From: Minisyncoccota bacterium
GTDB taxonomy: Bacteria; Patescibacteriota; Minisyncoccia; Phycocordibacterales; UBA9973
Reading direction: 5' to 3'
DNA: 64,000 bases
Assembly (NCBI GenBank): GCA_018061145.1
Contig: JAGOUR010000001.1
Span: 875 to 64,874, forward strand
Shown: positions 429-34,578 of the stretch, one piece after another
Layout: every line of letters starts with the position of its first letter
How positions within the stretch are numbered: the first letter of the stretch is position 1
Translations under genes and position numbers: made by a program
Notes under the pieces: model-generated
Told to the model about the DNA's origin: nothing
What the model saw: only the letters and a program-made list of their open reading frames with translations
Databases searched by the model: none

Positions 429-1487
429 ATGAACAAACAAAAAACAGTATTTGTCGGTGTTAGTGGTGGAGTAGATAGCTCTGTATCTGCAGCATTACTA
501 AAAGACCAAGGCTACAACGTAGTCGGGGTATTTATTCGTACATGGCAACCTGATTTTATAGAGTGTACATGGCGCGATGAGCGACGGGATGCTATGCGTG
601 TATGTGCACATCTAGATATCCCATTCCTAGAATGCGACGGTGAGGAGGCCTACAAAAATGGCGTAGCAGACTATATGATCTCTGAATACAAACTAGGCAG
701 AACTCCAAATCCAGATGTAATGTGCAATCGTGAAGTAAAATTCGGTGTATTTTGGAATTTTGCAAAATCTCATGGTGCAGACTTTATCGCTACTGGGCAC
801 TACGCGCAGAATATAAATAATAAATTAGTAAAAGGTAATGATGAATCCAAAGATCAGTCGTATTTCCTGTGGACTCTAAATAGTGATGATCTAGAGCACA
901 CACTTTTCCCAATTGGCCATCTACCAAAAACTGAAGTGCGTAAATTGGCAGAAAAATACAAACTACCTACTGCAGTAAAAAAAGATTCTCAGGGTGTATG
1001 CTTCCTGGGACCACTCGATATGAAGGATTTCCTTTCTCACTATATCGAGCCAAAGAAGGGTGATGTTTTAAATGAAGATGGAGATATTATTGGGCACCAC
1101 GATGGCGCCGTATTCTTTACTCTTGGCGAGCGCCACGGTTTTCATATTACGGAAAAGGGGACAACCGATACTCCATACTATGTAATATCAAAAGATATTG
1201 ACAAAAATACAATCTATGTCAGTCCCAGGCCGGGCCTGGGACTGGAGGAGGAAGGATCAAATACGGAGTATGTATTGAATAATTCAAATATTTTAAAAGA
1301 AAATATTGATCAAACCAAAAAATATACAGCGCAGATCAGGTATCACGGAGAATTTTTGAATTGTAGTGTGATGTTTGATGATGTTAATCCAAAAATAACA
1401 TTTGATAATCCTATCCTGGTATCGCCAGGTCAGTCTATCGTAGTATACGATAGAGATATTTGTCTCGGGGGTGGAATCGTGAAATAA
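429..1487 (+). CDS. mnmA: tRNA-specific 2-thiouridylase MnmA
   Basis: N-terminal PP-loop SGGVDSSV and a full-length MnmA-like sequence. Confidence 0.9.
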   Translation: MNKQKTVFVGVSGGVDSSVSAALLKDQGYNVVGVFIRTWQPDFIECTWRDERRDAMRVCAHLDIPFLECDGEEAYKNGVADYMISEYKLGRTPNPDVMCNREVKFGVFWNFAKSHGADFIATGHYAQNINNKLVKGNDESKDQSYFLWTLNSDDLEHTLFPIGHLPKTEVRKLAEKYKLPTAVKKDSQGVCFLGPLDMKDFLSHYIEPKKGDVLNEDGDIIGHHDGAVFFTLGERHGFHITEKGTTDTPYYVISKDIDKNTIYVSPRPGLGLEEEGSNTEYVLNNSNILKENIDQTKKYTAQIRYHGEFLNCSVMFDDVNPKITFDNPILVSPGQSIVVYDRDICLGGGIVK

Positions 1488-1526
1488 AAATAGACGAATC
1501 AATATAAATAATAGTATAATAATAAT

Positions 1527-2012
1527 ATGTTAGAACAATTTTTTGATGCACAGACGATGGATATCGTAACAAAATTAACAATAGCTTTGTTTTTGGGGAT
1601 GTTTATTGGTATGGAACGTGTGTGGGCACACAAGACTGCCGGCATGCGTACGTACGCGCTCGTATCTATGGGGGCTGCATTGTTTGTCATCATATCTGAT
1701 CAGATGGTACAAGCCTACTCTACTTTTGCAGGTTTAAATCCACTATTTATAGCTGGTAATATACTAGTAGGGGTTGGATTCATCGGTACAGGATTGATAG
1801 TCACAAAAGATTCAAAGCTCATGGGTCTGACTACTGCTACTGGGCTGTGGGTATCTGCAGGTATCGGTATGGCTGCAGGTTTTGGTCTAACAAAACTAGC
1901 AATCATCGCTACGTTCCTGACCCTATTTATATTTATCGTAATCTGGTTCATAGAAAAACAACTAAAAAAGACAGAATTTTTCCAAGACGATTCTTTTAAT
2001 GATATAAATTAA
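1527..2012 (+). CDS. MgtC/SapB family membrane protein (short form)
   Basis: GMERVWAHKTAGMRTYALVSMGAALF core motif in a multi-TM protein; TATAAT 6 nt upstream of the ATG. Confidence 0.65.
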   Translation: MLEQFFDAQTMDIVTKLTIALFLGMFIGMERVWAHKTAGMRTYALVSMGAALFVIISDQMVQAYSTFAGLNPLFIAGNILVGVGFIGTGLIVTKDSKLMGLTTATGLWVSAGIGMAAGFGLTKLAIIATFLTLFIFIVIWFIEKQLKKTEFFQDDSFNDIN

Positions 2013-2020
2013 TTAAGATA

Positions 2021-2049
2021 CCCCGGCCCAGGTCGGGGTGTTTTAATTT
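2021..2049 (+). terminator. Rho-independent terminator after the MgtC-like gene
   Basis: ccccggcc-cag-gtcgggg hairpin followed by a T-run. Confidence 0.7.
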
Positions 2050-2075
2050 GTCCTTATTTTTGCTATATTATGTAA

Positions 2076-3815
2076 ATGCAATCAAATGAAATTCGCTCAC
2101 GTTTTCTAGCCTTTTTTGAAAAAAGAGGCCATAAAATAATACCTAGTGCATCACTCGTGCCCGAGAACGACCCATCAGTCCTTTTTAATACAGCTGGAAT
2201 GCAACCCCTCGTGCCATACCTCCTCGGGGAGGTGCACCCAATGGGTAAAAGAATCGCTGATATTCAGAAATGTGTCCGCACAGGAGACCTCGAAGACATC
2301 GGGGACAATCGGCACTTTTCATTTTTTGAAATGATGGGGAACTGGTCATTGGGAGACTACTTTAAAGATGAAGCTATTGCTTGGTCTTATGAATTCCTAA
2401 CTTCAAAAGACGAAGGTCTTGGGCTAGATAAGAGTCGCCTGTATGTGACTATCTTTGAAGGTGATGAAAATGCTCCATACGACCAAGAATCAAAAGATAT
2501 ATGGATGAAGCAAGGTATTCCAGAGAATCGTATCTATGCACTACCTGCAGATGATAACTGGTGGAGTCCTGGAGATAATGGTCCATGTGGCCCTTGTTCT
2601 GAGATGTTCTACGATATGGTAGGTAGTACTGGTGACCTTGACCATGAAGGATTTTTATCTGCAGTAAAAAAGGAGACTGTGATTGAAATCTGGAATGACG
2701 TATTCATGGAATATGAAAAGAAGGACGGAAAAGTAATTGGTAAATTAAAGCAAAAGAATGTAGACACAGGAGCAGGGTTGGAAAGAATATCTGCAGTAAT
2801 GCAAGGTCAGAAAACTGGCTACGAAACAGATATGTTGAAACCAGTTATGGATATGATACGTGAAAATGCTAAGCACCTAGATGATCTTTCTGCTCGCATT
2901 GTAGTAGATCATGTGCGTGCATCAACAATGCTTATTTCTGATGGAGTTATTCCTGCGAACAAAAGTCAGGGTTACGTTTTACGTCGTTTAATTCGCCGTT
3001 CTGTTTTTTATATGAAGAAATTAGGTCTTGATGACGGTATCGCAAACGAAATAATTAATTATTTCATTAATTTTTACTCAAATACATATCCAAGTGTTGC
3101 AGTTGTTGATATTGTTACTATATTTAAAACCGAAGAACAAAAATTCTCTACAACTTTAAATGATGGTAAAAAAGAATTTGAAAAAGGCACAGATCCTTTT
3201 GTTCTTGCGACTACCTATGGATTCCCAATAGAGCTTACTCTTGAATTGGCATCTGAAAAAGGTCAGACTATTGATTTGGAAGACTTTAAAGTTAAAATGG
3301 CTGAACATCAAAAGCTTTCTCAGACAGCATCTGCAGGAATGTTCAAAGGAGGTCTCGCAAACCATAATGACAAGACTATAAAGCTCCACACAGCACACCA
3401 TCTATTGCTAGCTGCACTGCAGGAGGTACTCGGAGTAGAAGTAAAGCAAAGAGGTAGTAATATCACAGAGGAGAGACTACGCATAGACTTTACTTTTGAT
3501 CGAAAAATGACAGATGAAGAGAAGCAAAAGGTGGAAGGCATAGTAAATGAAAAGATAAATGCTGGGTTAAATGTGATTCGACGTGAACTACCTCGTGAGG
3601 AGGCCGAGAAGATCGGTGCTCAGATGGAATTCGGAGCAAAATACCCAGATATGGTATCTGTATACTTCATAGAAGATGAGAGTGGTAATCAATTCTCAAA
3701 AGAATTCTGTGGTGGACCGCATGTGACCAATACAAAAGAGATCGGTCACTTTAAACTTCAAAAAGAAGAAGCATCATCTGCCGGTGTACGCAGAATAAAG
3801 GGAATATTGGAATAA
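2076..3815 (+). CDS. alaS: Alanine--tRNA ligase, short form (catalytic plus editing domains, no C-Ala domain)
   Basis: N-terminal AlaRS class II motifs (FFEMMGNWSLGDY). Editing-domain HTAHHLL and CGGPHV motifs. The gene ends at 579 aa with a terminator directly after. Confidence 0.85.
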   Translation: MQSNEIRSRFLAFFEKRGHKIIPSASLVPENDPSVLFNTAGMQPLVPYLLGEVHPMGKRIADIQKCVRTGDLEDIGDNRHFSFFEMMGNWSLGDYFKDEAIAWSYEFLTSKDEGLGLDKSRLYVTIFEGDENAPYDQESKDIWMKQGIPENRIYALPADDNWWSPGDNGPCGPCSEMFYDMVGSTGDLDHEGFLSAVKKETVIEIWNDVFMEYEKKDGKVIGKLKQKNVDTGAGLERISAVMQGQKTGYETDMLKPVMDMIRENAKHLDDLSARIVVDHVRASTMLISDGVIPANKSQGYVLRRLIRRSVFYMKKLGLDDGIANEIINYFINFYSNTYPSVAVVDIVTIFKTEEQKFSTTLNDGKKEFEKGTDPFVLATTYGFPIELTLELASEKGQTIDLEDFKVKMAEHQKLSQTASAGMFKGGLANHNDKTIKLHTAHHLLLAALQEVLGVEVKQRGSNITEERLRIDFTFDRKMTDEEKQKVEGIVNEKINAGLNVIRRELPREEAEKIGAQMEFGAKYPDMVSVYFIEDESGNQFSKEFCGGPHVTNTKEIGHFKLQKEEASSAGVRRIKGILE

Positions 3816-3819
3816 AAAA

Positions 3820-3848
3820 ATGCTCTAGTATTATCTAGAGCATTTTTC
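3820..3848. terminator. Bidirectional terminator between alaS and the convergent gene
   Basis: atgctctag-tattat-ctagagcat hairpin flanked by an A-run and a T-run. Confidence 0.7.
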
Positions 3849-3864
3849 ATTTCTTCATCAATTT

Positions 3865-4665
3865 TTAACCATTCGTTATTTCTTCATATACCATATTGTC
3901 TTCTGTTAAAAGTGGTATAAAAAAAGTAGACTCCAAATCTAGCCAGCTACCACCGAGCGATGACCATCTTTGGTAGGGGTAGCAATAGAGCATAAATTTG
4001 CCTTTTTCTTCAAAACGGCGTATGTCTACCATCCTTAAATCATCAATACCTGTTGGAATTTCTGGGTACTTTGTATTCAAAACAAACCAATTTCTAGTAG
4101 ATATTTTCTCAGCTAACATAGAAATAATAAAGCAATTCAAAATTTGTTTTGCAGACATACTTAAAATAGAGGGCTCTCTCTTAAATGAATAGAAATAATA
4201 GATAGGTCCGTTACCACCATACTTTTCTTTCATATTGAAAATACGAACATCTCTACTGATTATCTCTGTATTTTCTTTTTGAAGTAGCTCCTTGAATAAT
4301 AGGTCGATCGGAGGGTGATTTCCAAATTCAGCGAAAAAATCCTCGTAGTTTTCTGTCGTGAAGTCTGTGTTGACGCAAATGTCAGTACCAGACCAAACCA
4401 GATCTCTGGTCTCTTCCATTTTTTCAAGCTTTAATTGGGCTTTCTTCTCATTTTCAATTCTGATTTCCTTCTCTTTTCTTTCCCCCCTTTCTTTTTCTTC
4501 TGCCTTCTTGATGTTACGGAGTTGATTACGATTTAATCTGTTTTTGATACTCTTTACAAGAATAATGAATACAATGAATATTAATAATAAAATTATCCAT
4601 TGTTCGTGGTTATGGAATCTTTCAAAAATAGAAGATACCACAAAGATAGCTAAAAATGTTTCCAT
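3865..4665 (-). CDS. Hypothetical membrane-anchored protein with a charged coiled-coil segment
   Basis: N-terminal TM helix, KE-rich repeat region, no recognised catalytic motif. Confidence 0.4.
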   Translation of the reverse strand: METFLAIFVVSSIFERFHNHEQWIILLLIFIVFIILVKSIKNRLNRNQLRNIKKAEEKERGERKEKEIRIENEKKAQLKLEKMEETRDLVWSGTDICVNTDFTTENYEDFFAEFGNHPPIDLLFKELLQKENTEIISRDVRIFNMKEKYGGNGPIYYFYSFKREPSILSMSAKQILNCFIISMLAEKISTRNWFVLNTKYPEIPTGIDDLRMVDIRRFEEKGKFMLYCYPYQRWSSLGGSWLDLESTFFIPLLTEDNMVYEEITNG

Positions 4666-6003: not shown

Positions 6004-7320
6004 ATGGTAAAAAAAGTTGTACAAGATATAAATATCAAAAAACCAAAATTACTAAAATTTGATGAACCAAATGATTCAGTTATTTCTGGGGATTTAGATA
6101 CCGAGCAGAAATTTTCTGCTATATCTCAGATGCAGAGACGAAGACGCATACCTAGTACACCCATGGTAAAGAGAAAGAAGCTCCTGCCTAGATATTTCGT
6201 CTGGATCTTGGTAGCTTTGGTGATTGTATCCCTAGTATATGTATCTTATGCTTTTCTCCAAAAAGCGACAGTATCTATAAATACAAGGAAGCAGAATTTT
6301 ACTTTTAAGGAAGAGGTCTTTACTGCATACAAGCAAAATGAAAAAAAACCTCATTTTGAAATAATGATATTAAATGATGTATATAGTCGAAAGATTAACT
6401 TTATCGACCCCAAAGACGTATCCATAAAGGCACACGGTGTCGTATTTATAAAGAACGAATACAGCTCAAAGCCTCAAAAAATACTGATAAATACTAAAAT
6501 AGCCGATGATTACGGGAGGCTATACACTACAGATAGCACTGTGACAGTGCCTGGTTTTACAAAAGTAAAAGATAAAGTAATCCCTGGATCGACCGCTGTA
6601 AAAGTCACAGCTGTTTCTGCTGGGGAGGAGCACAACACCTCATCAAAAAATTTCTTGATACCTTCTTTTGAAAAGACAGATAAATATACAAAAATTTATG
6701 CTACAGCTCTCAATCCCATCATAGGCGGAGCATTAGGCAAGCTATACAGTCTGGGTCCAGTGGAGATTGGCACATTAAATGCCGAAGCGAATACATTCTT
6801 TCGAGAACAGGCAATGCGTAAACTCTCGGCTCAGATACCCCCTGGGTACATATTGTATCCCGGAGCTACAAATTTCTCTTATTCATTCAATCAGGACTCA
6901 AAATCTAAAGATGCAATAGGTGAAGTCGAGATATCTGGTGTAGTGAATGCTATTATCTTTAAAATTGAAGATTTGGAAAAGGTATTTATAAAGAGAGCTG
7001 GTCCGAACATAAAAGATTCTGAGTACTCTGAAATATCAGTAGAAAATATGGACTCTTTTATTCTAAAGCTTTCTGATAAGAACAAAATCATATCAAAAGA
7101 CATGAATGAGGTATCATTTAGTCTGACTGGTGGTAGTGTCCTGATTTGGAGCCCTGACATAGATCAGATCAGGCAATCCATCCTGGGTCTGGATGTTAAA
7201 GACCTAGGCCAAAAGACTCAAGAGGATCCCGGAGTGGTCGGTTCTAGTGTAGAATTCCTGCTACCTTTCCAAGACAAAATACCAAACAAAACCCATATGG
7301 TTGATGTTAAAACATATTAA
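6004..7320 (+). CDS. Single-pass membrane protein, possible partner of the FtsA/PilM-like protein
   Basis: Arg-rich cytoplasmic N-terminus, one TM helix (YFVWILVALVIVSLVYVSYAF), large extracytoplasmic domain. Starts 4 nt after the upstream gene. Confidence 0.35.
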   Translation: MVKKVVQDINIKKPKLLKFDEPNDSVISGDLDTEQKFSAISQMQRRRRIPSTPMVKRKKLLPRYFVWILVALVIVSLVYVSYAFLQKATVSINTRKQNFTFKEEVFTAYKQNEKKPHFEIMILNDVYSRKINFIDPKDVSIKAHGVVFIKNEYSSKPQKILINTKIADDYGRLYTTDSTVTVPGFTKVKDKVIPGSTAVKVTAVSAGEEHNTSSKNFLIPSFEKTDKYTKIYATALNPIIGGALGKLYSLGPVEIGTLNAEANTFFREQAMRKLSAQIPPGYILYPGATNFSYSFNQDSKSKDAIGEVEISGVVNAIIFKIEDLEKVFIKRAGPNIKDSEYSEISVENMDSFILKLSDKNKIISKDMNEVSFSLTGGSVLIWSPDIDQIRQSILGLDVKDLGQKTQEDPGVVGSSVEFLLPFQDKIPNKTHMVDVKTY

Positions 7321-7362
7321 TTTGACTGGAAAAGATATTTAAAGTATAATGGCAGTACATAC

Positions 7363-7581
7363 ATGAACGAAATTAAAACTGATGAAAATACAAAGGTAGG
7401 AGTCGTGATTGAATCTCTACCCAATACATTGTTCCGAGTAGATCTAGGTGATGACAAAGTTCTGATATCTTATCTGTCTGGAAAGATGCGTATGAACAGA
7501 ATAAAGGTCCTAGTGGGGGATAAAGTTGAGGTTTTGATCGATCCATACGGTGGTAAGGGTCGCATAACAAAGAGACTTTAA
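7363..7581 (+). CDS. infA: Translation initiation factor IF-1
   Basis: 72-aa S1-like protein with conserved VIESLPNTLFRVDLGD and RMNRIKVLVGDKV motifs. Confidence 0.9.
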   Translation: MNEIKTDENTKVGVVIESLPNTLFRVDLGDDKVLISYLSGKMRMNRIKVLVGDKVEVLIDPYGGKGRITKRL

Positions 7582-7712
7582 AATCCACACATTGTACGCC
7601 CGTATAAGGGCTTGCAATTTTTATTAATATAGTGTAGTATTACCCGATATACGCTTACAAGAAAAAGTACAGGGTTTTGGCCCTTGATTTTGTCTGTCGT
7701 TTGAATAAATTT

Positions 7713-7823
7713 ATGAAAATCAAAGCATCAATTAAGAAAATTTGTGCAAAATGCAAAATGGTTAAGCGTGAAGGACATCTACGCGTTATTTGTTCAAATC
7801 CAAAGCATAAACAAAAGCAGTAA
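7713..7823 (+). CDS. rpmJ: 50S ribosomal protein L36
   Basis: 36-aa [39 protein letters not shown]. Below the ORF-track size cutoff. Canonical position between infA and rpsM. Confidence 0.85.
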
Positions 7824-7872
7824 AATTAATAGTTAATACCTATCCTCCTCGGAGGAGAAAAACGATTGAGTT

Positions 7873-8253
7873 ATGAGAATTCTAGGAATTACAATACCAA
7901 ATAACAAGAGACTTGATATCGGCCTTACCGCACTATACGGTATTGGTCTTTCTCGTTCAAAGAAGATTTTAAAAGAAGCAGGAGTAGACGCAAGTGCAAA
8001 GGGTGATACTCTAACAGTTGACCAAGAGAATGCAATCCGTAAAGTTATAGAGTCTATGACTATCGAGGGGGCACTAAAGCGTGAAATAGCTTCAAACATA
8101 AAGCGCCTAAAAGATATCAAATCACACAGAGGAGTTCGTCATATGAAGAGACTTCCAGTATATGGACAGAGAACAAAGACAAATTCTCGTACAGTACGCG
8201 GAAATGTAAGAAAGACAATGGCTAGTGGTCGCCGAAAGGAAAGTAAGACATAA
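7873..8253 (+). CDS. rpsM: 30S ribosomal protein S13
   Basis: MRILGITIPNNKRLDIGLTALYGIG N-terminus; conserved position. Confidence 0.9.
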   Translation: MRILGITIPNNKRLDIGLTALYGIGLSRSKKILKEAGVDASAKGDTLTVDQENAIRKVIESMTIEGALKREIASNIKRLKDIKSHRGVRHMKRLPVYGQRTKTNSRTVRGNVRKTMASGRRKESKT

Positions 8254-29426: not shown

Positions 29427-30839
29427 TTAAGCGAGGAGTTCCTTTAGAATCTTTTGCACTAGGGCTGGGTTGGCACTCCCCTTTGTCTCCTTCATGATTT
29501 GTCCTACTAGTGACATCAGTGCATTCTCCTTGCCACCTTTATAGGTTGCTACTACAGCAGGATTTGCATCGATGATCTTTTGTGCGATTTCTTTGAGTGC
29601 GCCTTCATCATTCTTCTGAATCAAATCTTTTTCTGTGGCGATCTTCATCGGACTCTCGTCTGCAATTACTATCATAGCTAGGATATCTTTTGCTGCACGT
29701 GATGATATTAGTCCATCAGTAGTCATACGGATCAATTCTGCAAAGTGCTCATTGTTCGGTAGATTTATTTCTGGATTAGATTTCTTCAGTCCTAGGTAGT
29801 CTGAGGTGATATAGTTCGATGCCGTCTTGATCTGCTCAGGGCCATTTAATTTTGCAGCCACACCCTCGAACCACTCTGCTAATTTTATATCACCCACATA
29901 GCTCTCAATATCTTCATCTTTAATACCATAATCCTTTTGGTATCTAGCACGCTTTGCACTCGGTAGTTCGGGTAGATCAGCGCGAAGTTCCTCCATGTTG
30001 AACATTTTACTCAAATAGAATTTTGGGATATCTGGATCTGGGAAATATCTATAGTCATCTGCTGTCTCCTTGCGACGCTGAGAGAAAGTCTTTTGCTTTG
30101 CATCGTCCCATCCACGAGTCTCCTTTACTATCTCATCAATCTTATCCTCCTCTATTAGATCTATCATGCGCTTTTGTTCGTATATAGCAGCACGCTCAGC
30201 TGATTTGAATGAAGCAATATTTTTCACCTCTACTGGTATACCGAATTTATCGGGATCAGTAGATACAGAGATATTCACCTCGACACGCATCTGACCTTTT
30301 TCCATATTGGCATCTGATACGCCCAGGTATCGTAGTAGCATCTGTAGCTCCTTTGCAAAATTTCCGATCTGCTCGATATCATGAATCACAGGCTCGGTCA
30401 CTAGCTCCATCAATGGCACTCCAGCACGATTGAAATCTACGAGGGATCCATCTGCACTGTGGGATGAAGTCGCTGTATCTTCCTCGAGGTGCACACGAGT
30501 GATATCCACCCCTGCCAATTTACCACCTTTGACTATTGGGTATTTGTATTGTGAAATCTGATATGCTTTTGGAATATCTGGATAAAAGTAATTTTTACGG
30601 TCAAATTCAGTGAAATCGGAAACTTCCCCATCTATAGCCATTCCTACGCGTACGACGCTCTCTATGGCCTTTTTATTGCATACTGGGAGTGTTCCTGGGT
30701 GGGCCATACATACTGGGCAGACGTTGTAATTTGGGTGATTCTCCTCGGGGTCGTTCTTGCACCCGCAAAACATTTTGGATACTGTATTCAGCTCCGCGTG
30801 TATTTCAAGACCTATTGTTGTGTAGTATTTTTTTTCCAT
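29427..30839 (-). CDS. gatB: Asp-tRNA(Asn)/Glu-tRNA(Gln) amidotransferase subunit B
   Basis: MEKKYYTTIGLEIHAELNT N-terminus and a GatB/YqeY tail. Confidence 0.9.
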   Translation of the reverse strand: MEKKYYTTIGLEIHAELNTVSKMFCGCKNDPEENHPNYNVCPVCMAHPGTLPVCNKKAIESVVRVGMAIDGEVSDFTEFDRKNYFYPDIPKAYQISQYKYPIVKGGKLAGVDITRVHLEEDTATSSHSADGSLVDFNRAGVPLMELVTEPVIHDIEQIGNFAKELQMLLRYLGVSDANMEKGQMRVEVNISVSTDPDKFGIPVEVKNIASFKSAERAAIYEQKRMIDLIEEDKIDEIVKETRGWDDAKQKTFSQRRKETADDYRYFPDPDIPKFYLSKMFNMEELRADLPELPSAKRARYQKDYGIKDEDIESYVGDIKLAEWFEGVAAKLNGPEQIKTASNYITSDYLGLKKSNPEINLPNNEHFAELIRMTTDGLISSRAAKDILAMIVIADESPMKIATEKDLIQKNDEGALKEIAQKIIDANPAVVATYKGGKENALMSLVGQIMKETKGSANPALVQKILKELLA

Positions 30840-30851
30840 ATTTTTGTTTAT

Positions 30852-31754
30852 TTATCTTACCATATTTGAGGCAAATTCATTAAATTTTTCAATATCAGCT
30901 TTTGACCCGAGAATATGAATTTGGGAGGGGCTAAAAACTACAATATTCTTTTCATCACTATCTTCTTGAATTCCACCATCTATTGTATCGTCATCAAATT
31001 TTTTTAAATACGCAGCTTCTGAGAGAATACTATCCATACTATCTCTAGTACCATTTTCAACGTGAGGATTTTTGATATCTAACAAAGCATATATAATTCT
31101 CCCGTCTGGCAATATTTTATAATGATTATAATCTGGAATTAAATAATAAGGTAGAAACATTTTTCCAAACTGGAACCCAAGACCTTCTTTATTCTTAAAA
31201 TACTTAATTTTTTCATAATTTAGAACTGCATTTAACTCATTCCCCGAATTTACTTCTTTGACAATGTACAAAAATTCGGCATTAATTTTATCCCACATTT
31301 CTATTGTGTCTTTGTTAAATTTTTCAAAATCTCCTGCAGGCTTTTGTCTATTGTGATACCAGTCAAGATTGTCTGACTCGTATGAATCAAAAATCGCATA
31401 CAAAACTTTTTTATATTTAGTGGCAAAACCTTCAGCTAATTTTTTATTATCTGTAAAATAGTAGTCATCAATACCCTTTATACTAGAAAGTTCATCTAGG
31501 CCCACTTTCTTTTTAAACTCATCAAAATCTCTATTTGTACCATGATAAACAATATCTTTAATTTTACTATCAGGAAAAATAGTTTTTAGATATTCAATAT
31601 ATTGCTGCTCAGTTCCAATTCTTGCAAGTTCAGGATTTAATTTAAAAACTTCTTGTATGTTCTTTTCTTGTTCAGAAATTTGTAAATTCTCAACAATTTG
31701 ATCTTTTTTAGATTCTACGGGTTCTAGTTTTTGATTAAAGGGATTATGTTCCAT
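30852..31754 (-). CDS. Hypothetical protein with a weak ADP-ribosyltransferase-like H-G-T / Y-Y signature
   Basis: IVYHGTNRDFDEF followed by DDYYFTDN. No other support, so treated as hypothetical. Confidence 0.3.
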   Translation of the reverse strand: MEHNPFNQKLEPVESKKDQIVENLQISEQEKNIQEVFKLNPELARIGTEQQYIEYLKTIFPDSKIKDIVYHGTNRDFDEFKKKVGLDELSSIKGIDDYYFTDNKKLAEGFATKYKKVLYAIFDSYESDNLDWYHNRQKPAGDFEKFNKDTIEMWDKINAEFLYIVKEVNSGNELNAVLNYEKIKYFKNKEGLGFQFGKMFLPYYLIPDYNHYKILPDGRIIYALLDIKNPHVENGTRDSMDSILSEAAYLKKFDDDTIDGGIQEDSDEKNIVVFSPSQIHILGSKADIEKFNEFASNMVR

Positions 31755-31792
31755 TTGAGTATTTTACCAAAAAATATGAGGTTTAATAAGGG

Positions 31793-31820
31793 TTGACATT
31801 ATACAAATAAGTGATATAAT
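31793..31820 (+). promoter_or_regulatory. Near-consensus sigma-70 promoter for the 31845 gene
   Basis: TTGACA(31793-31798)-16 nt-TGaTATAAT(31812-31820); an A/C-rich leader with no Shine-Dalgarno sequence. Confidence 0.55.
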
Positions 31821-31844
31821 ACAAACAAACCAAAAACAAATAGT

Positions 31845-32144
31845 ATGAAAAAGTTTATTAGATTCCAATTCACTATCAATGACAAGAATTATTTTTTCTT
31901 AAAAGAAAGCCTCGTAGAATTACCACTTGGAACACAGTATTCCCCTAACGGACAAGAGCTCTATTTTGGAGTAGTAACAAAATTCAAATTCAACGAAAAA
32001 GATAACATCTTTTTAACTTGTATTTTGAACGATCACAATTACAACAAAAAAAGAGATGAAGTCCCTGTAGAGTTCATTATTGAAATGATGAAAAATGCAG
32101 GCTGGGAATTGTTGCCTGAAGAACCAGATGGATTGGATGTTTAA
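31845..32144 (+). CDS. Hypothetical small protein
   Basis: 99-aa intact ORF downstream of a strong promoter, followed by a terminator. Confidence 0.35.
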   Translation: MKKFIRFQFTINDKNYFFLKESLVELPLGTQYSPNGQELYFGVVTKFKFNEKDNIFLTCILNDHNYNKKRDEVPVEFIIEMMKNAGWELLPEEPDGLDV

Positions 32145-32149
32145 AATTT

Positions 32150-32186
32150 TAAACCCACAGACGACCCGCTCGTTTGTGGGTTTTCT
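32150..32186 (+). terminator. Rho-independent terminator
   Basis: cccacagacga-cccgc-tcgtttgtggg plus T-run. Confidence 0.75.
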
Positions 32187-32237
32187 GTATTTTATTGGTA
32201 TACATATAAATATTTGCTAGAATATACGTATACCTTT

Positions 32238-32720
32238 ATGAACAAGAAAAGAACTTGGTCTGAAACACAACTTAAAGATGCAGTTAAATCTTCTAAGAGT
32301 TACAGAAATGTGATTAGTCTTTTGGGGTTAAGGCCTACTGGTGGAAATTATGATCAAGTAAAGAAATATATTAATCAATATGGTTTTTCAACTAAACATT
32401 TTACTGGGAAAGTCTGGAATAAAGGATTAAAATTCCCCGATCGGAATTATATAGAATTAAAAGACATTCTTGTTCTAAATAGCACCTACCAAAGTCATAA
32501 GTTGAAAAAAAGACTGTTTTCGGTTAAACTAAAAGAACCTAAATGTGAAGAATGCGGCTGGGCCAGAATATCTCCAGATGGTAGACTTCCTTTGGAATTA
32601 GACCATATTAATGGAAATAGGCATGATAACAGGATAGATAATTTAAGAATTTTATGTCCGAACTGTCACAGCATGCAATCAACACATAGAGGTAAAAACA
32701 GAAAAGCCCGAGTGGTGTAA
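32238..32720 (+). CDS. HNH endonuclease (homing-endonuclease-like)
   Basis: C-terminal HINGNRHDNRIDNLRILCPNCHSMQ HNH motif. The 3' end overlaps the tRNA-Leu by 15 nt. Confidence 0.7.
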   Translation: MNKKRTWSETQLKDAVKSSKSYRNVISLLGLRPTGGNYDQVKKYINQYGFSTKHFTGKVWNKGLKFPDRNYIELKDILVLNSTYQSHKLKKRLFSVKLKEPKCEECGWARISPDGRLPLELDHINGNRHDNRIDNLRILCPNCHSMQSTHRGKNRKARVV

Positions 32721-32789
32721 TTGGTAGCCACGAGAGACTTAAAATTTCTTGTCATTTATGACGTGCGGGTTCGACCCCCGCCTCGGGCA
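32706..32789 (+). tRNA. tRNA-Leu (anticodon TAA)
   Basis: Manual fold: 7-bp acceptor GCCCGAG/CTCGGGC. U8. D-loop AATTGGTAG. Anticodon stem AGAGA/TTTCT with loop CT-TAA-AA. Long variable arm GTCAT-TTAT-ATGAC. T-arm GCGGG-TTCGACC-CCCGC. Discriminator A. Confidence 0.8.
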
Positions 32790-32794
32790 CAAAT

Positions 32795-32823
32795 AAAAAT
32801 AACCTCTTTTGAGGTTATTTTAA
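32795..32823 (+). terminator. Terminator after tRNA-Leu
   Basis: aaataacctc-tttt-gaggttattt plus T-run. Confidence 0.7.
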
Positions 32824-32859
32824 TTTGTGATTTGAAAAAGTAATTGTTTTACTTTTTCA

Positions 32860-32946
32860 AAGGGTCGAAAGACGGAGGCTGACGAGCCGAGTCGGGGTCG
32901 CGAGATTTTTCAGCAGAAAAATACTTGTGACCGGTACCCCGCCTCC
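32860..32946 (-). other. GC-rich complex hairpin region, probably the terminator of the 32947 gene; carries a tRNA-3'-end-like 10-mer
   Basis: ggaggc...gcctcc outer stem. ACCCCGCCTC repeats the 3' part of tRNA-Leu (32775-32783). Confidence 0.25.
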
Positions 32947-33273: not shown

Positions 33274-34578
33274 TTATTTTTTGACCATTGTTGATGTGAC
33301 TCTTGGTAGGTATAGCATCGGATCTAGATATGCACTAGTAGGTGCGATAGGCATGATAAATGTCTTGCCAGCACAAGATATACTAGGCACAGTATCTACT
33401 CGGGCACCCTGAGATGCATATACAGTCACATGCAGATGTGGACCTGTAGAGTGACCAGTATTGCCGCTGTATCCTACAACATCACCAGTTTTTACCTCAT
33501 CCCCAGCTTTTGCTGTATAAGACGAAAGGTGTCCGTATGTAGTGGACAGACCATTGTCATACTTTATAAATACCCACTTTCCAAAAGAAGCCTTTTTGCA
33601 ATAAAGATCAGTATCTCCCACGCCCATCACCGTACCATTTGCCATAGATTTTACAGGTGTACCGATAGGAGCACGGAAGTCCACGCCAGAGTGAGATCCA
33701 GATGCATACAGGCGCCCAGAGGCAGAAGTCTTGCCGAATAATTGAGTGATGAATACTTTATCCAATGGCCATGCAAATACCTCGGAACCAGCAGATGGTA
33801 TCAATTTAGGATTTAGCAAGAATTTTAGTTTTGATTCATAATCTCTTATATCTTTTTCAAATTGATCACGGATCTTGATTTGCTCGGCTAGCATCTTTTT
33901 ATACTCAGCTTCCTTGTTCTTTGTCTCCTGTAAAAGATTATCTTTTTCTGATTTTGTTATCTCAATTGTTTTTTGTTTTTGAACTAGCGTATTCTTTAGA
34001 GTTTTTAGATTTTTCTCCTCTAATTCTTTTTTGGTCTTAGATACTAGGAGCTGATCCTTGTCATCAGACAATTCTTCGATGGATTTATCGAGCTTTGCAC
34101 TGACAGACATCACAGAATTGTAATTAAAAGAAGCATCACTGAGATCTTCAGACGATAATACTCTCTCCAGCTGTGTAATATTTTCATTTTGATACTGCTC
34201 GTATAGTAATTTTGCTATTACCCTACGGCTGATATCGATGTCGCTCTGAGTCTCTTTTATCTCAGTATTCAGAGATCCTATGACTAGGCCAGTCTTTTTG
34301 ATTTGTTTTTCAATCTTTTGTTTTTCTGCGAGTAATTTGGATCTAGTCAGAGTTAATTCTTTTATTATACTCGCTAAAGTTGTTTTTTCTGAAGAAGTCA
34401 CGTCTATCATACCTTGGTACCTGGCAATCTCTCGGTCTATCTTGGCAATTTCAGCACTCGCACTATCTATGCGCTCCCTCATCTGCTCTGCAGTCTCTGC
34501 ATTCACATCAAAAGAAAAGAAAGACATATAAATGCCTATGGTTAAAAAAACAAATAGAGGTAAAAATTTAATTTTCAC
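33274..34578 (-). CDS. M23 family metallopeptidase with N-terminal coiled coil (EnvC-like)
   Basis: Signal/TM, long coiled coil, C-terminal HSGVDFRAP...GHLSS...GNTGHSTGPHLHV M23 motifs. Confidence 0.8.
   Translation of the reverse strand: MKIKFLPLFVFLTIGIYMSFFSFDVNAETAEQMRERIDSASAEIAKIDREIARYQGMIDVTSSEKTTLASIIKELTLTRSKLLAEKQKIEKQIKKTGLVIGSLNTEIKETQSDIDISRRVIAKLLYEQYQNENITQLERVLSSEDLSDASFNYNSVMSVSAKLDKSIEELSDDKDQLLVSKTKKELEEKNLKTLKNTLVQKQKTIEITKSEKDNLLQETKNKEAEYKKMLAEQIKIRDQFEKDIRDYESKLKFLLNPKLIPSAGSEVFAWPLDKVFITQLFGKTSASGRLYASGSHSGVDFRAPIGTPVKSMANGTVMGVGDTDLYCKKASFGKWVFIKYDNGLSTTYGHLSSYTAKAGDEVKTGDVVGYSGNTGHSTGPHLHVTVYASQGARVDTVPSISCAGKTFIMPIAPTSAYLDPMLYLPRVTSTMVKK

Follow-up and report, generated by a model that had tools for sequence, protein, structure and literature searches.

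A probable free-standing homing-endonuclease cassette of the HNH type at the 5' edge of a tRNA-Leu(UAA) gene in a Patescibacteria genome

In a stretch of 64,000 nucleotides (nt) from the genome of a Minisyncoccota bacterium (contig JAGOUR010000001.1; the whole stretch is referred to as the window in the following), the gene for an HNH endonuclease runs directly into the gene for a transfer RNA (tRNA), tRNA-Leu(UAA). The HNH gene together with its own promoter probably represents a free-standing homing-endonuclease cassette that resides where the tRNA-Leu(UAA) gene begins, at its 5' edge. Ancestrally, this home site is the short spacer of a tRNA-Cys(GCA)/tRNA-Leu(UAA) operon, which the cassette fills in most cases. 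The cassette was found at this exact site in hundreds of species of the ultra-small bacteria of the candidate phyla radiation (CPR, Patescibacteria), and also in a few genomes whose labels name other phyla. It shares the properties of a free-standing homing endonuclease in that it occupies the same site in different genomes, that close relatives carry the empty site, and that it is located outside of any intron or intein. The coordinates of all features are compiled in Table 1.

The open reading frame (ORF) of the HNH gene begins with the ATG at 32238 and ends with the TAA at 32718-32720; a TTG-extended alternative would start at 32214. The encoded protein scored above the gathering cut-offs of the Pfam families HNH_3 (PF13392, 28.2 bits, cut-off 24.8) and HNH (PF01844, 25.6 bits, cut-off 21.4). 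In addition, residues 1-157 matched positions 2-157 of 245 of PHROG 10822 with an E of 3.7e-48, i.e. over the full length of the protein. In the databases 4707 homologues were present, the best 120 of which are 55-100% identical to the protein from the window. The source names given for identical and nearly identical proteins point to the CPR, close to Paceibacteria and Nomurabacteria. An AlphaFold2 model with a mean pLDDT (predicted local distance difference test) of 82.5 predicts an N-terminal three-helix domain (approximately residues 9-48), a flexible linker and a zinc-bound HNH domain. The zinc-binding and catalytic set of the latter comprises C103, C106, C140 and C143, the pair D122-H123, N135 and H144; all of these residues are invariant among the homologues except for H144, which is conserved in at least 90%. 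A Foldseek comparison of the model with the PDB returned the HNH domains of McrA, ScoMcrA and Cap5 as top folds, all of them weak (best E 0.02), and a sequence search against solved structures gave nothing significant, the best match again being McrA (E 0.66). The NCBIfam families ZorE and IscB were dropped as assignments, since they matched only the HNH domain and only below threshold. Based on profile and residues, the protein is classified as a putative HNH / His-Me finger nuclease, and the full-length profile assigns it to the phage HNH endonuclease family PHROG 10822.

The tRNA gene was determined by two programs. ARAGORN made a single tRNA call on the complete window, tRNA-Leu(taa) at 32706-32790 on the forward strand without an intron, and the Rfam tRNA model (RF00005) matched 32706-32789 with 51.2 bits over its full length (1-71 of 71) without insertion. 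No group I intron was matched in Rfam; the tRNA-Leu gene is continuous and the HNH ORF lies outside of it. An earlier note on this DNA, made from the sequence alone, had folded the tRNA by hand and placed its start at 32706 within an HNH ORF stopping at 32720, which is borne out by ARAGORN, Rfam and the ORF list. The overlap amounts to exactly 15 nt (32706-32720): the tRNA begins with the 15 bases that serve the ORF as its four final sense codons and its stop codon. While the length of the overlap was thus given correctly, its description as the 5' acceptor stem was too narrow, since only the first 7 nt form the 5' acceptor strand and the overlap continues through positions 8-9 into the D arm.

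The last five codons of the ORF (..ARVV*) are the tRNA-Leu sequence translated in frame. Beyond the conserved core, which ends with ..HRGKN, the C-terminal tail varies among the homologues, several of which end with ..ARVV, ..ARVA or with longer read-throughs of the tRNA. Since the coding sequence reaches position +1 of the tRNA, the ORF ends at whichever stop codon comes first, and the overlap in the window is 15 nt because the first stop is the TAA within the D arm. The supposition that any mutation in the HNH C-terminus would also hit the acceptor stem therefore has the constraint reversed: it is the tail that consists of tRNA sequence read in frame, past the conserved core and in a variable part of the protein. 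The length of the overlap is incidental, and the juxtaposition of HNH gene and tRNA is what is conserved. For annotators this means that the overlap of ORF and tRNA is genuine and no error.

A scan with one genome per species revealed at least 574 genomes with a relative of the HNH gene. The 80 best loci, one per species, were compared; judged by the record titles they belong to many CPR lineages, and a few are labelled Elusimicrobia or other phyla (individual loci are designated by L numbers in the following). In 76 of the 80 loci the HNH gene is followed on its own strand by a tRNA-Leu(taa), whose first base is at -99 to +47 nt relative to the HNH stop codon. Including L007, in which a run of N interrupts the tRNA, the number increases to 77, the remaining exceptions being two loci at contig edges and the rearranged L055. 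For 77 loci, including the window and omitting L007, the position of the stop codon was tallied: in 43 loci it falls within the tRNA, 1-99 nt deep, in 32 it precedes the tRNA by 0-11 nt, and in two the gap is larger. From the end of the conserved ..HRG[KR]N motif to position +1 of the tRNA the median distance is 15 nt. As to whether the same order with the same overlap is universal in the lineage, a point raised by the earlier note, the order holds in nearly every genome with this HNH gene; the overlap, where there is one, measures 1-99 nt, and some close relatives do not have the HNH gene at all. That an unrelated ORF merely happens to run into a tRNA gene, or that the arrangement is an artefact, has a negligible probability. 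Although the overlap length is not conserved and is set by the first in-frame stop, as such an accident would predict, the identical juxtaposition recurs in 77 of 80 independent loci, the catalytic residues are intact and there are thousands of homologues. The juxtaposition of HNH gene and tRNA-Leu in these sequences is far beyond chance.

Two further observations concern this set of loci. In L007, a run of about 35 N (6514-6546) follows the anticodon loop of the tRNA-Leu(taa) and blocked the ARAGORN call; the relatives have 1-2 bases at this place, and the run may stand for a masked or unassembled insertion. Five loci labelled Elusimicrobia (L027, L042, L050, L015 and L325), with a GC content of up to 64%, contain the HNH/tRNA-Leu(UAA) unit, the HNH protein being 60-64% identical to that of the window, with no tRNA-Cys upstream. 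Taking the record labels as given, this suggests a spread of the unit beyond the CPR.

In most loci a tRNA-Cys(gca) is located approximately 45-120 nt upstream of the HNH ATG, and tRNA-Lys(ctt) and tRNA-Leu(tag) often follow downstream. In glyW-cysT-leuZ of E. coli the spacer between tRNA-Cys and tRNA-Leu(UAA) is only 12 nt long; the HNH cassette thus fills a gap that other bacteria keep short. In the sub-lineage of the window, the pair of HNH gene and tRNA-Leu is split from tRNA-Cys. Metagenome contigs were scanned for empty sites with a tRNA-internal pattern only. Among the 99 tRNA-Leu(taa) genes obtained in this way, eight had an abutting HNH gene and about 25 had a tRNA-Cys within 76 nt upstream and no endonuclease in between. 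Five empty sites (L235, L268, L264, L239 and L328) have a Cys-Leu spacer of 12-54 nt, and their best flank proteins are 70-85% identical to those of HNH-bearing loci. In L235 the order is Cys, 40 nt, Leu, Lys, Leu, with flank proteins 79-85% identical to those of the HNH-bearing L003, and in L268, with a spacer of 34 nt, the flanks are 75-85% identical to L003 and L087. Since MAFFT misaligned the tRNA-Cys of the empty allele, the left boundary of the insertion within the AT-rich spacer can be given only approximately.

The same spacer is also used by a different type of endonuclease. In L290 (3921-4486) and L292 an ORF of 186 amino acids (aa), and in L288 (571-1339) one of 229 aa, is located between tRNA-Cys and tRNA-Leu(UAA). 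These ORFs exceed the cut-off of Pfam LAGLIDADG_3 and likewise read into the tRNA (..ARVL*). The upstream neighbours in L290 resemble those of HNH-bearing and of empty CPR loci.

Apart from complete genes, partial copies of the tRNA were observed at the site. L059 and L068 contain a tRNA-Leu copy that begins around position 2 or 7 and ends at 26-27, and in L034 the copy continues into the anticodon loop; all of them lie approximately 35-75 nt upstream of the HNH ATG. In the viral locus L330 a copy reaching into the anticodon loop ends about 20 nt before the HNH ATG. In the CPR loci concerned, the copy is located ahead of the HNH promoter, and behind the ORF the tRNA-Leu is present in intact form. 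The copies may be the scar of an old insertion in the anticodon loop or a product of gene conversion.

Several observations do not fit easily with a selfish homing cassette and have to be set against this interpretation. Compared to L086 and L088, the HNH protein of the window is the most conserved protein of the neighbourhood (87.5% and 79.5% identity versus 80% and 70% for gatB), and the identity of 57-88% that it retains between CPR classes is unusually high for a selfish gene. Its GC content follows that of the host (r 0.90), and of the two syntenic relatives the more closely related host also has the more similar HNH protein; both fit a long vertical residence. No empty site was found among the sampled loci of the window's own gatB...M23 peptidase sub-lineage. 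The tRNA-Leu genes are alike at empty and filled sites, although the host copy would have to escape cutting, and the target site of cleavage is a putative one. The frameshifted HNH copy of L245, which as a disrupted copy speaks for mobility, could be an assembly error. Finally, the excess of synonymous similarity described below is partly due to a strong AT codon bias and is reversed in the lineage of L015 and L027, where the HNH gene is more diverged than its flanks.

Some of these observations support the most serious alternative, i.e. that the HNH gene was acquired early in the CPR, became domesticated and has been kept vertically for a cellular role, for example to cut incoming DNA with a naked tRNA-Leu(UAA) site (as in tRNA-bearing phages) or in another DNA transaction, and that it stays at tRNA-Leu only through the shared transcript. 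Besides the very high conservation, a dN/dS (ratio of nonsynonymous to synonymous substitution rates) of 0.09-0.13 points in this direction, which at the same time indicates that the protein is under selection. The position kept in syntenic relatives, the single copy per stretch of sequence compared, the host-like GC and the retention of lineage-specific contexts, such as a transfer-messenger RNA (tmRNA) upstream in L023 and L059, would be expected as well. A domesticated gene, however, would explain neither the close relatives without HNH at an otherwise identical site nor the unrelated LAGLIDADG endonuclease at the same site. Furthermore, the homologues are typical free-standing HNH genes of phages, conserved partner genes are missing, and in the clade of the window the synonymous similarity of the HNH gene exceeds that of the flanks. 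Between the window and L086, the synonymous-codon identity of the HNH gene is 0.67 compared to a codon-bias null of 0.48 (z 5.8) and to 0.39 for eight flanking genes, which are saturated; the proportion of synonymous differences (pS) is 0.52 versus 0.77-0.87 in the flanks. Since this signal shrinks under the codon-bias null, is weaker in some other lineages and reverses in L015/L027, it is only supportive. The GC content of the HNH gene is on average 7 points below that of its flanks. Altogether, we regard domestication as unlikely, and the homing cassette is preferred, though the very high conservation of the protein leaves room for a role beneficial to the host.

The cassette appears to carry its own promoter. 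A promoter-like site with the -35 box TTGGTA (32195-32200), a 17-nt spacer and the extended -10 box TGcTAGAAT (32215-32223) precedes the HNH gene, and most of the 83 homologous loci compared have a TATAAT-like box at the equivalent place 5' of the ATG, which is consistent with a promoter function. No Shine-Dalgarno sequence is visible ahead of the ATG at 32238, and since this ATG follows closely behind the promoter, the predicted messenger RNA (mRNA) would be nearly leaderless. The promoter is surrounded by a palindrome with the arms GGTATAC (32197-32203) and GTATACC (32228-32234), separated by 24 nt. A search for GG[TCA]AN[AT]C, 12-36 nt and G[AT]NT[AGT]CC within 90 nt upstream of the ATG detected both arms in 46 of the 83 loci. 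The number expected from shuffled sequences was 0.1, and a control region contained both arms in 2 of 78 cases. The left arm is located at fixed distances from the ATG, either at about -54 to -60 or at about -38 to -43. Since the palindrome recurs in the viral homologues and is absent from the spacers occupied by LAGLIDADG genes, it belongs to the HNH cassette.

In the window, the palindrome alone folds only weakly (-8.8 kcal/mol, z -1.95). It extends over the -35 box and the point at which transcription from the HNH promoter probably starts, and it is a plausible autoregulatory operator. A comparable situation is reported from the homing endonuclease I-TevI, which is said to bind an operator over its own promoter (work ascribed to Edgell et al. 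2004). The position of the cassette palindrome is alike, but I-TevI is a GIY-YIG enzyme and the comparison is an analogy only. The left arm also resembles the D arm of tRNA-Leu. The upstream GGTAnAC arm did not covary with the D arm of the tRNA-Leu gene from its own genome (0.55 for the own versus 0.54 for non-own D arms, permutation p 0.15), and an operator mimicking the target of its own genome is unsupported at the resolution of this test.

At the other end, the unit is closed by an intrinsic-terminator-like hairpin with a T-rich tail, corresponding to an inverted repeat (I5) with 19-nt arms of 95% complementarity. The terminator scan gave no terminator between the HNH ORF and tRNA-Leu, but one behind the tRNA at 32796-32821. 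Promoter, HNH gene, tRNA-Leu and terminator are hence presumed to form one transcript, and because the ORF runs into the tRNA within it, the HNH mRNA would at the same time be the 5' leader of the tRNA.

Relatives of the HNH protein in phages are 36-44% identical to it and show the same association with tRNA genes. The homologue of Gordonia phage GodonK (gp149) starts 3 nt after a tRNA-Leu and overlaps a tRNA-Glu by 10 nt, and that of Escherichia phage mistaenkt (gp113) ends 1 nt before a tRNA-Leu. Of 33 HNH loci on viral contigs, all but three are accompanied by tRNAs at a distance of up to 1.5 kb (30 of 33). Nine of the HNH genes border directly on the following tRNA, a tRNA-Leu in seven cases, and in ten the start is preceded by a tRNA-Leu(taa) at a distance of 45-61 nt. 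In 80 viral loci retrieved with a generic tRNA-Leu(UAA) pattern, an HNH homologue was present in one only and did not abut the tRNA, so phage tRNA-Leu genes are generally without the cassette. The phage members of PHROG 10822 have the same two-domain architecture, are located in tRNA clusters where they abut or overlap the next tRNA, and in many cases have a palindrome-flanked promoter as in the CPR cassette. They differ from it by an often present C-terminal extension of about 90 aa and by several kinds of tRNA as neighbours, whereas the CPR proteins cluster closely, with identities of at least 57%, and are fixed at tRNA-Leu(UAA). Two loci in our set look like phage-type tRNA clusters: L306 (5.7 kb, GC 27%) contains three paralogous HNH genes, 42-45% identical to the window protein, among nine tRNA genes, and L259 has an HNH paralogue between tRNA-Leu(taa) and tRNA-Gln.

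Similar arrangements have been described for the phages T5 and T4. In T5, hegA, hegC and hegD are likewise free-standing HNH genes among tRNA genes; hegD overlaps tRNA-Gln by 23 nt, hegC overlaps tRNA-Ser by 14 nt, and hegA is 43% identical to the HNH half of the window protein. In contrast to the window, the heg genes are phage-borne and present in several copies per genome beside various tRNAs, and hegC and hegD belong to another HNH subfamily; the HNH gene of the window occurs once, in the genome of a CPR cell, is tied to tRNA-Leu(UAA) and encodes an N-terminal three-helix domain. T4 SegB is also free-standing in a tRNA cluster, cuts within a tRNA gene of an endonuclease-free relative and drives the inheritance of the tRNA region. 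Its homing has been shown experimentally, whereas the window cassette is known from its sequence; moreover, SegB is phage-borne and has a GIY-YIG fold unrelated to HNH. For T4 segB, it was proposed that maturation of tRNA-Arg cuts the mRNA between the last codon and the stop codon and thereby lowers expression (PMC2330249). The same control by tRNA processing was proposed for F-TflI/II of T5 (PMC2330249; for the F-Tfl enzymes see Akulenko et al. 2004, as cited there). As in these phages, the ORF of the cassette ends at or inside the next tRNA (Cys-[HNH]-Leu-Lys-Leu in the relatives), but it is not carried by a phage. Based on the phage homologues and the T5 and T4 genes, the overlap in the window is regarded as the cellular counterpart of the phage arrangement, and the cassette, as judged by sequence, as a cellular variant of it.

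Mobile endonucleases are also linked to tRNAs by group I introns, which occur in tRNAs of Patescibacteria and some of which carry HNH genes, as in tRNA-Asn (PMC13011429). In contrast to such intron endonucleases, among them those at position 34/35 of tRNA-Leu(UAA), the HNH ORF of the window is located in the 5' flank of a continuous tRNA and not within an intron. In the literature, which was covered only thinly for subscription journals, no description of a free-standing HNH cassette at tRNA-Leu(UAA) in CPR was found.

Assuming homing, the three-helix domain and the HNH nuclease would nick or cut cassette-free alleles at or near the junction of spacer and tRNA-Leu. Following the standard homing model, recombinational repair would then copy the cassette into the cut allele, with the conserved tRNA genes as homology arms. 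The palindrome likely serves as autoregulatory operator of the cassette promoter, from which tRNA-Leu appears to be transcribed in this genome. Cleavage of the transcript by RNase P at position +1 of the tRNA (32706) would separate the HNH message from its stop codon and the four sense codons before it and lower the output of endonuclease.

Table 1. Features of the HNH/tRNA-Leu(UAA) locus and its surroundings (window coordinates)
Feature	Position	Strand	Basis
gatB	29427-30839	-	ORF list, Pfam
Variable slot between gatB and the HNH cassette (context only, outside the element)	30852-32183		Pfam, promoter/terminator scan, synteny
ART-PolyVal-like ORF	30852-31754	-	Pfam PF18760, E 8.7e-10
Consensus promoter of the 99-aa ORF, TTGACA-16-TATAAT, 12/12 match	31793-31820		promoter scan
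99-aa ORF	31845-32144	+	ORF list
Terminator of the 99-aa ORF	32151-32183		terminator scan
Promoter-like site of the HNH/tRNA-Leu unit	32195-32223	+	consensus scan
Inverted repeat around the HNH promoter, candidate operator/hairpin	32197-32234	+	locus comparison
HNH endonuclease ORF, 160 aa	32238-32720	+	ORF list, Pfam, PHROG, homologues, AlphaFold2 model
tRNA-Leu(UAA), uninterrupted, CCA not encoded	32706-32790	+	ARAGORN, Rfam RF00005
Intrinsic-terminator-like hairpin with T-rich tail, end of the HNH/tRNA-Leu unit	32796-32831	+	terminator scan
M23 peptidase	33274-34578	-	ORF list, Pfam

The neighbourhood of the HNH gene had given the impression of an accessory islet. All parts listed in the earlier note, i.e. 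gatB, an ART-like protein, a small protein behind a TTGACA-16-TATAAT promoter and an M23 peptidase, are present as claimed, and the GC content decreases to 27-32% over 30800-32400, compared to 38-46% in the flanks. The flanks of the cassette in the window consist of housekeeping genes (gatB, gltX, murG, ftsW, mraY), are syntenic in relatives and do not represent a phage genome. The comparison of the interval from gatB to the M23 peptidase proposed in that note showed that the HNH/tRNA-Leu pair stays in place while the other two genes do not. In L088, whose HNH protein is 80% identical, gatB is followed by 77 nt, HNH, tRNA-Leu, M23, gltX and murG, the slot being empty; in L086 (HNH 88% identical) a DUF6804 gene (7144-7875) replaces the ART-like and the 99-aa gene. 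Accordingly, the latter two genes form a separate variable slot, and the HNH gene with tRNA-Leu is a conserved unit, since it is kept between gatB and M23 in relatives without them.

Integrases use the 3' end of tRNAs, which are common integration sites, and an islet of ART-like gene, small gene and HNH gene integrated at tRNA-Leu as attachment site would agree with the low GC. An element of this kind exists in a related locus: in L087, a D5-type primase-helicase and a tyrosine integrase (484-3995) are located beside the 3' end of tRNA-Lys(ctt), upstream of tRNA-Cys/HNH/tRNA-Leu, and look like a classic integrated element. It is, however, at tRNA-Lys and not at tRNA-Leu. Between gatB and M23 in the window, no integrase or recombinase was found by ORF list and Pfam, and the repeat search detected no att-like (attachment-site) or tRNA-derived direct repeat around the islet. 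The HNH element is located 5' of tRNA-Leu and not at its 3' end, the genes have separate promoters and terminators, and the unit persists where the other two genes are absent or replaced. We therefore consider such an integration very improbable. The insertion of 30852-32720 as one accessory islet has to be given up, and the locus should no longer be taken for a genomic island targeted to a tRNA. From the earlier view, the homing or mobile type of the HNH gene and a meaningful link to the tRNA remain, but not the role of the tRNA as integration point of an islet. A 20-nt inverted repeat of 95% complementarity connects the interior of the ART-like ORF (31659-31678) with the start of the HNH gene (32235-32254; TTTATGAACAAGAAAAGAAC); it is of low complexity and probably due to chance.

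Just past the terminator of tRNA-Leu, a conserved structured element was observed on the forward strand (32872-32934, within the GC-rich region 32860-32945). Sequences 81-95% identical to it occur in L043, L005, L008 and L011, there within the same tRNA operon and flanked by tRNA-Lys(ctt) and tRNA-Leu(tag). The consensus fold consists of two hairpins with compensatory changes in 8 of 23 pairs, as determined from five sequences only, and the copy in the window folds at -37.3 kcal/mol (z -2.95). Rfam contained no match for it even at E<=1. The element is a candidate for a small RNA of Paceibacteria tRNA operons.

Several of the features described could be connected in a more far-reaching interpretation, which as a whole we consider speculative and rather doubtful: a self-regulating selfish element specific to tRNA-Leu genes that entangles its host by three linked features. 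Firstly, the three-helix domain would recognise GGTAnAC both in the D-arm DNA of tRNA-Leu, as target, and in the palindromic operator, for autorepression. Secondly, RNase P acting on the co-transcribed tRNA would strip the stop codon and pass the message to tmRNA. Thirdly, the cassette would be the sole promoter of tRNA-Leu(UAA), possibly the only copy of the genome (64 kb were examined), so that it could not simply be deleted. The tRNA-Leu 5'-half copies upstream would be scars of an original insertion in the anticodon loop, linking the cassette to the intron site of tRNA-Leu(UAA). If this were true, the impossibility of a simple deletion would explain the exceptional persistence of the cassette across the CPR.

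Free-standing homing endonucleases of tRNA clusters are known from a few model phages, whereas in the CPR, a very large and little-understood group of bacteria, a single family has come close to fixation at one tRNA gene. Since empty, HNH-filled and LAGLIDADG-filled alleles can be compared, the site offers a natural system for the persistence of selfish nucleases in tiny cellular genomes, and it is a source of candidate tRNA-gene-specific nucleases and operator sequences.

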